Shown in pieces: positions 2,398 through 19,600 of a stretch of DNA of 64,000 nt (its first letter is position 1; each line of letters starts with the position of its first letter). The notes beneath the pieces are model-generated. The model made no database searches. It was given only the letters and a program-made list of their open reading frames with translations, and was not told the DNA's origin. Made by a program: the position numbers and the translations under genes. Source of the DNA: Phyllosticta citribraziliensis. Taxonomy: Eukaryota. Location: the NCBI RefSeq assembly GCF_038025025.1, contig NW_027117345.1, positions 1,736,001 to 1,800,000 of the forward strand, given 5' to 3'.

Positions 2398-3381
2398 TCA
2401 AATGCCCTCCACCTTGACGCCCGACAAGTCCCACTCAAGCTGGACAGAGTTGTGCTCAACCTTGACACCATCCGGAATGCCGTAATCTCCGACCAAGACT
2501 TTTGGCAATGACTTGCGGTACGCTTCCCTCGCATCCTTGCCGGCTTCCTGGGCCTCGAAAGCATACATGCCCGCCGCCAGAGCTGCGTCCCTGGCCGAAA
2601 AGAAGCTCTCCCTGGCATCGAATCTGCTCAATTTACGCATGGAGCAGCGGCCGCGTCCCGGAAACACAGTCCTGTGGTCGTTCCTGCTGTACATAGTCGA
2701 GTGGTATCTCCATCCGGAGAGACGTGCCACGCGGTCGAGCGCCTCCTGGAAGCCATATCCTTCCTTGAACAGGCCATGCAAAAGATTCAGGCCCATTTGT
2801 GCAAGGTATGCTTCGTAAAGGACACCGCCGAGATGAATGGTGCCCTGATAACGCATCTGGACGAGGTTATGAACGAATGGCTTCATGACAGCAAGTGCGT
2901 TGTTTCTCATAGCGCCGGGGTGAGTGCGGTAATCGATTGAGAAAAGGCGGGGATGTTGCGCAAAGCGAAGGAATGCAGTGTCGAAGGTGGCGCTGGCCTT
3001 GGTGTTGCAACTGCAAAAGCAGATGGTGTTGTAGCTTGCCCACAGCAAGCTGAGGTATTCGGTGCGCACTACTGGGGTGACGCGGATGTTGGAGCGCAGG
3101 AGAGAAGCCTTGAAGTCGACGACCACTTGGGCCCCACGAGGCGAGAGCAGCTTGCAGTCCATGGTGAGGCCGTTTGCCAAAGGGCTGTGGTCTTCTTCAA
3201 GGACGAATCCCCAAATCCTGTTGCGCACCTCGGCCGGCAGCGTTGGCAGAGGTCGAGCGCTGAGCGCGGCGCGAGCGGAGACGGCCATGTCGGCAGCGGG
3301 GGGCGAGGCGGGTGCGATCTCGGACATGGCGGCAGAGTTGGAGAGGGAGATGACGTTCGGCGAAGGGGAGATGTCAGGCAT
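2398..3381 (-). CDS. Hypothetical fungal protein (~327 aa) with N-terminal F-box-like motif
   Basis: Long ORF 2398..3615; most plausible ATG at 3381 (MPDISPSPNV); motif LPTLPAEVRNRIWGFVL resembles the F-box-like LPxEIRxxIW start of many fungal hypothetical proteins. Confidence 0.65.
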   Translation of the reverse strand: MPDISPSPNVISLSNSAAMSEIAPASPPAADMAVSARAALSARPLPTLPAEVRNRIWGFVLEEDHSPLANGLTMDCKLLSPRGAQVVVDFKASLLRSNIRVTPVVRTEYLSLLWASYNTICFCSCNTKASATFDTAFLRFAQHPRLFSIDYRTHPGAMRNNALAVMKPFVHNLVQMRYQGTIHLGGVLYEAYLAQMGLNLLHGLFKEGYGFQEALDRVARLSGWRYHSTMYSRNDHRTVFPGRGRCSMRKLSRFDARESFFSARDAALAAGMYAFEAQEAGKDAREAYRKSLPKVLVGDYGIPDGVKVEHNSVQLEWDLSGVKVEGI

Positions 3382-4059
3382 GGCGGTGGGTGTGGAGAGG
3401 TAGAGGGTGGACGGAGAGATGGCGGCGCAGGGAGGTTTTGATTGTGCGCGGTGCCGAGTCTTGGGGACGAAGAGGAAGGCACAGGACGAGATGGAAACAA
3501 ACAGAGAGTTTTCCCGGCGTGAATGGACATGAATGCTCCTCGTCTGCCACCACGTTGGATGACGGAACCTCCTGCGTGCAACGCACCCACCGGTATGAAG
3601 CCTCCCCAAGCGCACGACGCGACTGGACGTGACATGCTCATATTCAACCCGATCAAAGTGACGGAGCCTCCAAACGCCATGTTTGAGCGCAAATTGCCAA
3701 AGTGCGAGGAAGGGTGACCAGAGCCCAATGACTCTGCAGTATTTGTGACCACTATGCCACTAGATTTCGCCGTGTTCTCTTTTCTTGCCCGTCAAAACTC
3801 GTAGAGAAGTACTAAGACAACTTTATATGGGTCGTCCCAAGTTCTCTGTGCAAACGACCATGGGACAAATCAGCAACACCAAGGAAAGATCGGGGTAGGT
3901 TGCGACGATGTCTTGGCGGCGTGTTGTGACTGCGCCGTGGTGTTGGTGAAAGCGGCGGTGACGTCGACGCCAAATGAGCCAGACCGGGAGCCAATTAATA
4001 AGTTTAATCAGCGAGCTCAATCTTCGACGCGGAGCAGGTTTGGGAGTGATGTCTCTTTC

Positions 4060-4378
4060 GTAAGTTGTGGCGTAGGTGGACGACCCCTACGTTTCAACCT
4101 CTGCGTCTGCTAGGAAGCTCCTGCCCTGAGTAGACCCCTTCCGTGTTGCAATCCGAGGACTCGAGTTCGAGTCTTACGGTGCGCCCGATATAGCCAGAAT
4201 TACTTTCCGTCCGGCCCAGTGGTAGGCGACGGTCTGGGCTACTCTGGGTCGGTAGTCGCCACAAATTCGACTTGCAACGCCAAGTCATTGGAAGAATTCG
4301 TGGACTGTCAGGCTGATGGTGGCAGACAGCAGAACCAAAAACACTTTTTTATCTTTCCCTCTACGGGCTAACCTGTAG
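4060..4378 (+). ncRNA. Candidate structured non-coding RNA or structured intron (unassigned family)
   Basis: Nested complementary segments with G-U pairs favouring + strand; GTAAGT at 4060, GCTAAC at 4367, TAG at 4376-4378; A-box-like, B-box-like and T6 motifs. Confidence 0.4.
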
Positions 4379-4852
4379 CCCGCAGCCCACCAACCTGATT
4401 GAGGTTGTGGTCATTCCCACCTCTTTACAACATGCCGTAAAGCTTAGGAAGATGCAACATCGCAGGCGCTGCTGCCCGGACCGTCGCGCTCGTTGGAGGT
4501 GAATGTGCGTTAGGCTGCAGCTGTGAGCCTGCTTTCGCAATCACCTAGTCGACGGCCTGGCTGTCTGGCGAGTTGCTATCCTCTACAAGTTGGTGTTGCT
4601 TCCGTGCAGCGCACTGCGTGGCAACACCACGGTCGAGGGAGAGCAGTCCCGCCGCCAGAGTCGCCGTTGGCCGTTGCTCTGGTGTGCATGCGTGCCGCAG
4701 GCTGAAGTCATGGCGATTATGCAGCCCCGACTCTTACTTACTCTGAAGTCTTACTCCTTCAACAGATGTACCCATCGACGAGCTCATAATCCCGTTCACT
4801 GTATGTATCCGCCACAGAGACCCAAACCAAAGACTCATCCTCTCCGCAAACC

Positions 4853-6906
4853 CTACTCGTACAGCCGATTCCGATTCAATCTCTCCACCTTTCCCTCGCC
4901 ATCGGCATTATTCGACAGGACGATGCAGCCAGCGGCGGCGTCTGGCTTGGCATCGCCCAAGAAGACGACGACGTCCTTGAGCATCCGCACCCTTTCATCG
5001 CCTTCCATCCACGTGCCTCCCTCCGGAACGACGATGCGGTTCTTGCGCGTGAGCGAGGAGACGGTGTCGAAGACGTCAGGGGCGACGCTGGCGACGCCAC
5101 AGATGGCCGAGACGGCGGCTGCGGCCATGAGGAAGAGGCTGCAGATGAGGAGGATGCCGAGCCACTGGTAGTGGCACTCTAAGAAGTGCTCCGTAGTCCA
5201 GCTTATTCCACTTCCCGTGCGCGTCGTGAAGTTGCTGTCTGCGGACGGTGCGAATTCGCTCAGAATTATTGATCCGTGTGGCATCATAGAAGCCATCCGA
5301 ATCGTGTTCATGAGCTGAGTCAATCGGAGAGCGAAGTCTTCCGCCGTTACGGCCAAGAATTCTTCCTTCGTCTTTGGCACATAGGGATCTGTAGGGTCGG
5401 CAAGGTAGTAGTTGAGTGTGGTAGGCCTCTTCGACGCCGGCTGGAATGCCTTTATCTGTCGAAGGCCCTTGAAGAATCGATCGAATAATCTCCCATCTTC
5501 CAAGGGAGTCCAGTCTTGATCTTCCATGGTAGAGTTTTTTCTGCGCACGGCAGTCATGTGCCAGGGCTTGGGCGCACCTGGTGTTGTGTCTCGGAAAATC
5601 TCGACTTCAACGAAACTCATGGACAAGACGAAATCTGCGGAGAGGTAAACGTGTTTGCCTTTGCCGGTCCCAAGTGGTCGTATATGGTCATCCACAAAAA
5701 TAGTTTGAGGCCCATGTGTTGTTCCGTCCAGTGCATTAGACTGATTGGATCCTTCGAACTGACCTGAGAATCTGAGACCAAGCGGTATTTTTTCGTTTTT
5801 ATTGGCGTCTTTTTCGTACGACTCGTAAAGATTTATGTTGCCTGGACTGATCTCACGATAACTGTCATTGGTAAAAAAAGTTGGGGTAAGATGCATATAA
5901 GCCGCGACGAACGTAAAGTTTGCACTTTGCTGCGCAACGTCTGCTGTGAAAGGTGTGAAGGGAACTCCGATTAGCGATGCGTGTGCTATGGCATCTAGTT
6001 CGATACCACGGTACCATCCTCCAGCATGTGGTTTTGAACCTTTCTCGACGATTTCGATCATCGGAATATGGAGATTCGACCAGGAATCGACACTGGAGTT
6101 TCTTGTCAAGCTGCTGGCAGCCAACGCTGTGGAAAATGCCAGATCGCGACTGTTATAGCCAGATTCAGAATCTTCACCCAGACTTTGAGGCGAGGTAGTA
6201 TTCGTGTCCAGTAATGTGACGCTTAAGGGTGAGATGGGATCTCGAGATTCCCTCGACACGATCCGGAGAGAAGCTTGACTTCCAAGAGGCGACAAGGCCC
6301 AGCTGATGAGAAGCGCAAGCATCAGAGGGCTAGTCAGGCGAAACTTCCACGGCATGAATATGGTGTTTCCCAGACTCGTGCTTCCCAGGAGTTGAGCCAT
6401 CGTCCCGACGGCTAGACCTCTTTCGGACTGCCATCTGGCAATATTTTTCAGACAGTGGGAAACGGTAGCCGCGAAAAGGTATGTAAAGATCGTGGTGGCC
6501 TTTTCAATTTTTAGCTATCTGTCAAAGATAGGGATGGGTAACAAACGTATTTGGCTACTCTCAAGAGTATGTTTCCTGTTGCCCAAGTGTCCTCATCGCG
6601 GATTGTCTTTTTATGGTTGTGAAAGCAAATGATCCCATAGATGAAGTATGCCAAGGCAAGCGTTCCCAGTATCATATCGGGTAGACACTGAAAATAGGCT
6701 TCGGTAGTACTCCTCAATCGTTGAGAAGCAGGGCATTTGGAGGGCTGGATTGTTGTCGAAGAAGAGGATTGTGGGAGCAGTGCCAGTTCCACCTCGCTGG
6801 AACCTGCGGAAGGGTGTGCCATGATGTTGCCTGCCGACAAAGAGGAGGTATCCGGCGGGACTTTATGCTGTGGGCAATCCGACATGGTTGCGATTTGGGC
6901 GGCCAA
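4853..6906 (-). CDS. Conserved-type fungal multi-pass membrane protein of unknown function (2 exons; intron ~6500-6546)
   Basis: ORF 6511..6906 joins ORF 4853..6400 through a 47-nt GT-AG intron giving RVAKY-ATTIFTYLFAATVSHCLKNIARWQSERGLAVGTMAQLLGS; hydrophobic segments, WALSPLGSQASLR motif and C-terminal TM helix. Confidence 0.75.
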
Positions 6907-16618: not shown

Positions 16619-19600
16619 GGCGGGCGGATGGGGAGAGCCAGGCACTGTAGGAGCCAGACGGCGGCTCAGGACCCTTTTGGCTCAGAGGAGCAAGCGAGGA
16701 TGTGGATGAGGACGACAAAACGGGACTGCGGACTCGATTAACATGAGAGCATCGGCAGGCCGAGGCGGGGAAGCATACAGAGGCGCAAACAAGGTTGTGT
16801 AATCACAAGTCAGCCGGAGCCGGGTCGCGCTCGTCTGGAGGCAGGGTATGACGGCGCGAAGTGGTGCTTTGGGTCAGCAACGAACGGATGATGAGGGCGA
16901 GGGCGCTGGCGCTTTCGGACAAGGCGATGGGATGGGCGCGCAGACGAGGCGCTGGAGGCGGCGATTGGAGAAGAGGCGAGGGTTGGCGGAGACGGCAGCC
17001 GTGGCGTGGAACCTCAGGGCACGAGAAGGGTTGGACTGATGGAATTGGACAGGACAAAAATGTAGAGCAGTGAGGTACGCATAAGTCGAGAGGCAGGGCA
17101 ATGACGTTGGAGCAACAGCTCCTCCGCAGGGCACAACGAAGGCAGGGGACAGGGCAGGGCGAGGCGAGGCGAGACGAGGTGACGGATAGGAAGAGAGGTG
17201 AGGAAGAGGGGGTGAGGAGGAGTCAGGGGAGGCGACGGCTGTAGGCGACGGCGGAGGGGAGGCGGCGCTGGCGAAGATGGAGAACAGAAGCGAAGAAGAT
17301 GGGGGGATGGGGGAGCGATGGTGTTGGTTTTGATGAGTGAGGTGAGGTGGTTGACGACAGCGCAGGGCAGGGCCGGCGGGCTCCTGACGCGGTGCGGTCG
17401 AGGTGGAACTGGAACGGAAGCTTGCCTGCTGGCTCTGGCGCTGCTCTGGCTCTGGCTCTGGCTCTCGTTCGGCGGGGCTGCGAGTCCCAAGTCGAAGATC
17501 GCCGCGAGCCCCACGGCACCACCATCAATCACTTCATCAGCAGACGGGGCGCGCCAGGCCGAAAGCGAGCGCCGCACACTCTCGATTCTCAATTCTCAGC
17601 GTCCGCCGACAAATCCTGCACCCTCTCCCTCACGGTTCGCTCTGCTGTGCCTGCAAGCCAGCACGGCCAACCATGGCGTCACTCGCTCTGGGGGATCACC
17701 GCTGCCACACGACAACTTTTGTCCTTATCAGCTCCTCAGCTTCATTGGCAAGTATCGCCGAGTCGCTGCTCTCACGACTCGCTCACCTCCAAACCCGACG
17801 ATACCCCATCAAGGATTTTTGGCAGCAGAAAAGGAGTGCCTTTCGTTGAACGCGACTTTTGGCTAGCTCGGAGCACAAATTCGGGTCCCCTCACACAATC
17901 TCAGGTGATTCGAGTCCCTCTGCACTTCGGACTCTGATCCCGTACCCAACGTTACTCGTCTGTTGTCGACGAGCCTCAACCGGTCGGGCGTCGCATCGTG
18001 AGGCGCGCTGCACCTTTCACCGAGAAATGGTGCGCGTCTTGCATTCCTTTTGTGCCTTGGCTCTGTCCGTCAGGTGGCGTGCTCTACCTTGCGCATTGTA
18101 CTGTACCTGACTGGCACCTTGATGTTGAGCCGACTTTTCAAAGTCCCCGGTACCGACACAGGGAAAAACGCCAAGTGCCTGTAGCGTGCGCCACCACGGC
18201 CTGGCTCCGACCGACGGCAATGGCGCGCTTTGCCGTGCTAGAAGGCTTGGTTCTTCCAGGGTCAACGTGGAAACAACGATGGCGCAAAGCCTGTGATGGC
18301 GCCCTCGATGACGAACGTCAACATTCATTGCTTGAGGCCTCCCTGTCGCAAGTGAGACCAGACGGCACGGCTGCAACAACACCGGAAAAGTTTGCGGTGA
18401 GAGGTGAAAGTGCGCCACGGTGGCAGCAAGGCTTGCGATGCGTCTGGTGGTAAGCATGGCAACAGGAGAAAAAGAGACGAGAAACCAAGCATTGGGTCGA
18501 GTTTCCATTGGCTTGCATGTGAGCGCTGATCAATCTCGCAGTCGAAGGCTTCATTGATCCAAGAAACGCCAATAAAGCTGCGTCATCACCACAAGGTCAG
18601 TAAGAATCCGCCCTGGAAGATCGGATCAGCTGGCGGGTAAACAAGACTTTGAGATGAGTTCCTAGAGTCGATATCCCGAGCGCCTTCACCGGCGTGGCGG
18701 CGCGAGTGCCGTCAAGATGGCTGATGTGTACAGCCAAGGCGTCACTTTATGTGCCGAGTACCGTGCCATTCGGATTTCCTCTCGACATTAATCAAGGCAA
18801 GCGACGTCCACAACACTCTATTTGCAGTCAAGTCGACGTCGAGCAAGAAGACGCGATTCTCATCTAGATTAATCAATGCCAGGGACAGGCACAAGCGCGG
18901 CGGGTAGGGTCTGAAAGTGGGTACTCGGAACGGGTGGCAGAGAAGGTGGCTGGTGTTGCACAGGAACAAGATCTGTGGCACTGGCCCGTCGCCGTGTCTA
19001 AAAATGGACTAGAGGGACGAGCGAAAGAAGGGGAGACATGGGCATGGATGGATAAATGGATGCTCAGTTGGTCGTCCGTGGCGGGGAGACGGTGTCGCGG
19101 GCACTTGTTTCAGGGTAAAAATACACCACCAATTATTCACGCGTTGGACGTGTGGCGAAGAGGGTGTCGGAGGTGCATGCTGCGAAGCAGAGTGACGATG
19201 AAGTGCAGGCGGTTCGAGGTGTTAAAGCGGCATCGGCGCTGGTGCTTTGTGTATAGAGTGGTGTCAGGACGGAAAAGTCGAAGGGCTGATACGAGTATGT
19301 ATTAGTACTTGGTATCAAGGCACTCAGCAAGTGGGGGGAGGAAATGGGTGGGCCAGAGTGCTGGAGCTGGTACATGTGTAGCAAGGAGGTTTCGTCGAGG
19401 CGCAGAGAAAGAGATGATGAAGCTCAGCGCGGTGGACACAGCTGCGAGGGGATATACATAGCAGGTCGATGGTTACACGTCGAGTGAGAGGAAGTGGAAA
19501 AGCTCCGGCGGCGGGCGGATGCGAGGCGATGCGCTGCGATGCAATGCGAAATACATACATAGTGGCGGCGAATATAGGTTGCAGAGTGACAGGCGCAGAA

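Follow-up and report, generated by a model that had tools for sequence, protein, structure and literature searches.

What is the short, highly paired piece of fungal noncoding DNA that lies at about positions 4052 to 4350 of the window (the whole 64-kb stretch of DNA that was analyzed), and why does it carry words that resemble spliceosomal signals together with words that resemble RNA polymerase III (Pol III) signals? The element is intergenic, and it is described here on the plus strand, in a gap of 1.1 to 1.5 kb flanked by two genes that are both on the minus strand. The left neighbor is an open frame at 2398-3759, with its first ATG near 3380, and the right neighbor is a 553-codon open frame at 4853-6514, for which the protein record has 515 amino acids. 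A Pfam search gave 0 families for the product of either neighboring gene. The closest named relatives of the 4853-6514 product are two Phyllosticta capitalensis proteins, both hypothetical and 48% identical to it, and its other ascomycete relatives are at 23 to 39% identity; from these values, it looks like a member of a fast-evolving family.

Our best explanation, to which we give about an even chance of being right, is that the plus strand at about 4052-4350 is a single-copy, stand-alone, Pol III-type gene for a stable folded noncoding RNA (ncRNA) of about 295 nt that belongs to no described family. We infer the transcription of this candidate RNA, its polymerase, its strand, its ends, and its function from the sequence and its relatives.

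Conservation of the block in related genomes

The comparison set consisted of Logan contigs from four public runs (X2 to X5), aligned to 3800-4700 with at least 80% likeness. X2, X3, and X4 are single-organism assemblies, X3 and X4 providing independent contigs of one related organism (organism B), while X5 is a mixed run. The contigs of all four runs look like DNA assemblies, so they are uninformative on expression, transcript ends, and splicing.

The element is far better conserved than the adjacent DNA. Aligned over 4052-4700, the X3 contig (11,485 letters) differs from the window by 54 substitutions and 21 gap letters. Forty of these 54 substitutions are listed by position, with 9 in 4052-4341 (290 nt) versus 31 in 4342-4621 (280 nt; Fisher p = 2e-4), a count in which the 14 unplaced ones are assumed to lie at 4622-4700 or in the flank; X4 excludes them from 4118-4322 but not from 4052-4117 and 4323-4341. 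Over 4118-4322, the X4 contig has 198 letters across the 205 window positions, with 2 substitutions (4161 and 4299) and 7 gap letters. When the 224-nt core is set against the downstream flank, 2 of 224 positions are changed versus 31 of 280 (p = 8e-7), the "neutral" baseline being this one 280-nt flank. Most of the variation within the block is concentrated in one patch, as 7 of the 9 X3 substitutions of 4052-4341 fall within 4089-4117, and there is one change in 4052-4099. Organism B also has a 7-base deletion inside 4203-4233, where the depth dips in both of its assemblies (38.4/49.6 in X3 and 6.83/8.82 in X4).

Both edges of the block can be placed. The 5' edge is at about 4052, and directly upstream, organism B has an A run that replaces 4047-4051, with the loss of the ATG at 4049-4051. 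At the 3' edge, the block fades past a run of six Ts (T6); the listed X3 changes are at 4342, then at 4357, 4360, 4363, 4371, 4374, and onward, and they become dense from 4357. In X5, the summed depth is 175 to 656 across 4048-4326, peaking over the 5' hairpin of the predicted fold, versus about 65 to 140 upstream and about 90 downstream, which means that more relatives match the element at a likeness of at least 80% than match its flanks. Two pattern searches of metagenome contigs, one for the A-box-like word described below followed by a gap of 68 to 98 and the B-box-like word and the other for the 21-mer of the 5' hairpin with R at 4089, gave 0 loci each.

The block is single copy. There is no second copy in the 64-kb window, where the best other blastn match is at most 21 nt long (E ≥ 2.8), and in X2, X3, and X4, the element sits on one contig each. 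The 11,485-base contig of X3 continues through the element, at ordinary depth, into flanking DNA that is unique, and organism B carries the element at the same locus.

Predicted fold and strand

An earlier note, made from the letters alone, had described positions 4060-4378 as highly paired and had proposed a comparison with shuffled controls, which we ran and which bears the description out. On the plus strand, this 319-nt stretch folds at -120.0 kcal/mol, against a mean of -102.46 (SD, 5.32) for the shuffles (z = -3.30), and on the minus strand, it has a z of -3.44, with 0 of 100 shuffles as good in either case. The two strands being equally unusual, folding energy alone gives no strand. To place these values, a z-score scan was made over the first 61 of 213 nonoverlapping 300-nt segments (the first 18.3 of the 64 kb). 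The mean z was -0.02 (SD, 1.34), and the lowest values among the 61 were those of 4201-4500 (-4.14) and then 4501-4800 (-3.65); the stretch 4052-4351 has a z of -3.26.

All 66 base pairs of the helices that had been drawn by eye in the earlier note are able to form, 10 of them as G-U pairs. The long rod into which they had been arranged is not favored, since enforcing it on 4052-4352 gives at best -95.8 kcal/mol versus -112.0 kcal/mol for the free fold, a cost of 16 kcal/mol. Four plus-strand helices are robust in the ensemble, with a mean pair probability of at least 0.95. The 5' hairpin (4064-4098) has 4+8+2 pairs at a probability of 0.96 to 0.99, and its 5' arm and loop contain the A-box-like word. 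The closing helix joins 4100-4112, which lies inside the variable patch at 4100-4117, to 4320-4333, which has no listed change in X3 (probability, 0.95 to 0.98). The other two are a hairpin at 4153-4179 that includes the B-box-like word (0.99) and a small hairpin, GACUUG/CAAGUC, at 4269-4286 (0.97), with no listed change in X3 or X4. The distal arm (4211-4260) behaves differently. A G-U-rich hairpin that had been proposed at 4225-4260 is missing from the minimum free energy, centroid, and MEA structures, and a competitor at 4211-4252, which forms in the centroid and MEA structures, has a probability of about 0.7; in these models, the middle of the molecule is structurally ambiguous.

The predicted RNA would consist of the 5' hairpin at 4064-4098, a multibranched body closed by 4100-4112/4320-4333, a short, A-rich, single-stranded tail, and 3' U residues, and both the 5' leader and the 3' tail of the candidate are unpaired in the predicted fold. 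Between the window and organism B, we saw no two-sided compensatory base changes. In the closing helix, 4 of the 13 pairs (at 4100, 4109, 4110, and 4111) are broken in organism B while the opposite strand is unchanged, so support from this relative is limited to the outer 8 or 9 pairs.

Several observations bear on the strand. At 4089, the A>G change of organism B, its one change in the 5' hairpin, replaces a U-A pair by U-G on the plus strand and leaves the minus strand with a C-A mismatch, and G is the commoner letter at this position among the relatives (5 X5 contigs). The T>C change at 4161, in the hairpin with the B-box-like word and present in X3, X4, and one X5 contig, is a C-A mismatch on the plus strand and a G-U pair on the minus strand, which fits the minus strand better. 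The plus-strand fold is better by 3.4 kcal/mol and has 10 G-U pairs versus 6. A minus-strand run of five Ts (the complement of 4337-4341) would fall within the first 15 bases of any minus-strand transcript. From the T run and the one wobble change at 4089, the plus strand would be the transcribed one.

A further folded element neighbors the block. Positions 4513-4727 form one long imperfect hairpin of about 215 nt (z = -2.75 on the plus strand and -2.64 on the minus strand). In X2, X3, and X4, a second locus matches two of its parts (4551-4578 and 4652-4696); the contigs there have a depth 3 to 15 times higher and replace the 73 letters in between with 81 others. A second copy of 4513-4727 was not found within the window. 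We may be dealing here with a MITE-like repeated hairpin or with a hairpin RNA.

Candidate Pol III signals, coding potential, and known families

The short words to which the earlier note had drawn attention are all where it had placed them, including GTAAGT at 4060, GCTAAC..TAG at 4367-4378, TTTTTT at 4345-4350, the A-box-like TGGCGTAGGTGG at 4068-4079, and the B-box-like GAGTTCGAGTC at 4163-4173. On the plus strand, TGGCGTAGGTGG is an exact match to TRGCNNAGNTGG, which we take to be the A-box consensus with one extra N allowed, and it has no listed change in X3. This variant pattern occurs 2 times in the 64-kb window versus 0.99 expected. In the register that we used for the B box, the word is AGTTCGAGTCT at 4164-4174 on the plus strand, with 2 mismatches to GGTTCGANTCC, presumably the B-box consensus; such words occur 53 times in the window versus 68.45 expected, i.e., not above chance. 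Organism B keeps both box-like words, as it does nearly the whole block. The plus-strand T6 run at 4345-4350, which we propose as the Pol III terminator, sits at the 3' limit of the conserved block; X3 shows no change in it, and T6 runs occur 29 times in the window versus 25.97 expected.

By rough post hoc arithmetic from these frequencies, an A box, a B box, and a T6 run in this order, on the same strand and within 300 nt, would be expected about 0.002 times per window. A stronger argument for Pol III is how the signals fit the conserved block, which begins 16 nt before the A-box-like word and ends at T6; the case as a whole is suggestive. No TATA-like word was found about 30 bases upstream of 4052. 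Among the readings of the earlier note, that of a new Pol III RNA comes out best: a block that runs from about 4052 to slightly beyond the T6 run, its single copy, and the lack of a matching Rfam family favor it, while the boxes are weak evidence when taken alone.

If the candidate is read as a Pol III gene, Pol III would start about 10 to 16 bases upstream of the A-box-like word at 4068-4079, the B-box-like word at 4164-4174, which is about 95 bases past it, would be used as part of the promoter, and transcription would stop in the T6 run at 4345-4350. Just past this run, a hairpin GGGCTA/TAGCCC occupies 4365-4381. The organism B changes fall in its loop (4371 and 4374) and in its 5' flank (4357, 4360, and 4363), and its stem is kept, so the RNA could extend beyond the T run, which would count against Pol III. 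Elsewhere in the window, the only other exact match to the A-box variant is TGGCGAAGATGG, at 17269-17280 on the plus strand, and B-box-like words follow on the same strand at 17477 (2 mismatches) and 17907 (1 mismatch).

The element is without coding signal. The earlier note had seen no clear host coding sequence, and we agree, as no coding host is visible and the open frames are without relatives or a Pfam family. Four open reading frame translations across the element gave 0 Pfam families at E ≤ 1, and a homolog search with an 85-amino-acid frame scored 2 candidates, none at E ≤ 0.01. The 7-base deletion of organism B breaks any reading frame, which argues against coding. Both core substitutions are third-position synonymous changes in the plus-strand frame, which we take as chance (about 1 in 10, with two events). 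A single TAG, at 4111-4113, interrupts an otherwise open plus-strand frame at 3805-4371; this stop would be within the possible 54-nt intron discussed below. The frame has no ATG, and in the region upstream, X5 relatives differ by indels of 14, 12, and 6 letters. We take its openness to be due to chance.

The earlier note had also proposed a search of Rfam, and the outcome gives the element no known identity. At gathering score, the whole window has 0 matches. At E ≤ 10, searches with 3900-4500 and 4045-4355 returned only chance-level matches, with 12.9 to 15.5 bits versus gathering scores of 40 to 60, and those with 4350-4900 likewise returned only chance-level matches. ARAGORN found 0 tRNA genes in the window, and no Rfam tRNA match was obtained at E ≤ 10. 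The search for signal recognition particle (SRP) RNA, RNase P RNA, and RNase MRP RNA used lax filters on 311 and 601 bases. The earlier note had failed to find SRP helix 8, the P4 core of RNase P/MRP, or box C of C/D RNAs.

Several specific identities were considered and dropped. SRP RNA has no family match at E ≤ 10, and no helix-8-like hairpin is visible by eye in the predicted folds. RNase P/MRP RNA has no match at E ≤ 10 either, and the ends of the candidate do not pair as P1 requires; the word GNAANNUC at 4113-4120 is at first similar to what we assume CR-I to be and then continues wrongly. Against an H/ACA snoRNA, organism B has ATA where the window has ACA (4341-4343), and against a C/D snoRNA, the box-C-like GTGATGT at 4045-4051 is replaced in that organism, with no snoRNA family at E ≤ 10 in either case. 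A tRNA-headed gene was rejected by eye, as there is no acceptor stem or T stem around the boxes. A spliced-leader-like RNA, with a short 5' exon, GTAAGT, a U run, and a 3' hairpin, was also rejected, as the letters just 5' of 4052 are not kept in organism B.

Competing readings and comparable systems

Two of the rival explanations make the conserved fold part of a spliced or longer transcript. The one that we take most seriously, still a clear minority position, is that the fold belongs to a longer Pol II transcript (an ncRNA or a long untranslated region), possibly with a 54-nt intron at 4060-4113, and that the T run is incidental. GTAAGT at 4060, TCAAC at 4094-4098, and AG at 4112-4113 would bound such an intron and are all kept in organism B, the patch at 4100-4117 would be its loosely constrained 3' end, and a longer transcript would take in both the hairpin at 4365-4381, which is kept past the T run in organism B, and the neighboring 4513-4727, which is also unusually folded. 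However, conservation drops about fourfold right past the T run, the splice words are kept trivially, being inside a block that is 98 to 99% conserved, and TCAAC is a poor branch word compared with the fungal branch-point consensus, CTRAY. The reading put forward in the earlier note, a 319-nt structured spliceosomal intron at 4060-4378 in an unannotated plus-strand gene, is weakened to the point of being improbable. Its 5' splice site (GTAAGT, 4060-4065), its branch point, and its 3' splice site (GCTAAC..TAG, 4367-4378) are present on the plus strand, and by our own reading of the sequence, there is an ATG 11 bases upstream and a 45-codon frame past the join. GTAAGT is part of the conserved block, and X3 keeps it, which is uninformative alone because nearly everything around it is also kept, while GCTAAC..TAG lies outside the block. 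In organism B (X3), the branch A at 4371 has become T and 4374 shows T>G, the latter change being present also in one X5 contig, and the letters at 4047-4051, with the upstream ATG at 4049-4051, have given way to the A run. The conservation thus sits in the interior of the supposed intron and not in its 3' signals or in the supposed exons, and no host open reading frame with relatives is found.

The other rivals do without a new RNA gene at this locus. That the block is conserved DNA without an RNA function, such as regulatory sequence belonging to the minus-strand gene with its first ATG near 3380, seems to us unlikely. The element does lie on the promoter side of that gene, about 670 to 970 bases upstream of the ATG, and proteins could bind to palindromic words such as that at 4156-4175. 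We also saw no covariation, and the substitutions do not point cleanly to one strand. On the other side, 2 substitutions in 224 nt versus about 11% in the flank would be far longer and tighter than typical clusters of binding sites, the fold beats all 100 shuffles, and one strand has a T run where the block ends. We give very little credence to a mobile or once-mobile element, either a tRNA-derived SINE or an introner-like element, as the earlier note had suggested. The A-box-like and B-box-like words, the T run, and the stable fold would suit such an element, but its single copy, both in the window and in each of the single-organism assemblies X2 to X4, speaks against an introner-like element and equally against a SINE. 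Moreover, organism B has it at the same locus within an 11.5-kb contig, a tRNA-like cloverleaf is absent (with 0 genes from ARAGORN), there is no tail of A-rich or repeat type beyond the T run, and the element is not within a gene. Equally improbable in our view is a very divergent SRP, RNase P, or RNase MRP RNA missed by the Rfam models. The size, the position beside a T run, and the layout are SRP-like, with a 5' hairpin followed by a body closed by a helix that almost reaches the 3' end, and there is a UGUNR word (UGUGG, 4066-4070) in the 5' hairpin region, where the SRP RNAs of Dikarya carry UGUNR according to PMC4605306. The same paper reports that such models failed in another fungal phylum, but also that the changes of aberrant SRP RNAs were not seen in Ascomycota (PMC4605306). 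There is, in addition, no SRP, RNase P, or MRP match at E ≤ 10 even with lax filters, no apical hairpin with helix-8 loops is visible by eye, and the 5' and 3' ends are unpaired, unlike P1 of RNase P/MRP.

We therefore return to a single-copy Pol III-type gene as the preferred reading of 4052-4350. As the 224-nt core is kept nearly in full while the flanking DNA differs by about 11%, we think that the candidate RNA acts as a whole, as a folded protein-binding scaffold and not as the precursor of one short RNA. A broader and more tentative proposal, which we regard as possible but doubtful, is that it belongs to a class, as yet undescribed, of Dothideomycete Pol III RNAs that are stable and bound by protein, and that it is conserved at the genus level as tightly as snRNAs or SRP RNA and so probably has a housekeeping role. 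To our knowledge, very few small RNAs have been catalogued in filamentous ascomycetes beyond the universal ones. If the preferred reading is true, a genus with plant pathogens and endophytes among its members would have a new RNA of the housekeeping type; if the block is not transcribed, it is still an unusually long ultraconserved noncoding element that needs another explanation.

Among known systems, yeast SCR1 (7SL) is a type 2 Pol III gene with an internal A box and B box that codes for a long, stable RNA. The candidate resembles it in being stand-alone, in its length of some hundreds of nucleotides, in its oligo(T) end, and in the placing of its box-like words, the A-type one close to the 5' end and the B-type one far downstream; it differs from SCR1 in being without SRP RNA features and in having weak boxes, with a use of Pol III that is putative. 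The yeast genes RPR1 and SNR52 are Pol III genes whose promoter-bearing 5' leader is cut off. As in these genes, both boxes of the candidate are in the first 125 nt or so, and a less constrained patch (4100-4117) lies there, but conservation is as high in the 5' part as in the remainder (1 change in 4052-4099), and the downstream part matches neither an RNase P RNA nor a snoRNA family. Literature searches, supplements aside, on Pol III ncRNAs of Pezizomycotina and on small RNAs of Phyllosticta turned up no description of such an RNA, and a search of PMC5640933, on structured ncRNA motifs in fungi, for a few terms gave nothing relevant, although a motif listed in a supplement could be missed. 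A fungal parallel in kind of locus is offered by the Pol III microRNA-like RNA (milRNA) precursors of Neurospora crassa, which, according to PMC3547838, are likewise intergenic, nonrepetitive, and strongly folded, the involvement of Pol III being putative in our case. In that paper (PMC3547838), milR-1 is said to lack A and B boxes and to rely on TATA-like elements, and the candidate differs from these precursors in keeping 224 nt nearly unchanged, which a small-RNA precursor would not need. Lastly, the introner-like elements of Dothideomycetes occur "in hundreds of copies" and inside genes (PMC3609843), whereas the candidate is single copy, lies between genes, and has 3' splice signals that organism B does not keep. 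What it shares with them is a length that exceeds that of ordinary introns, a stable predicted fold, and standard splice words at its ends.
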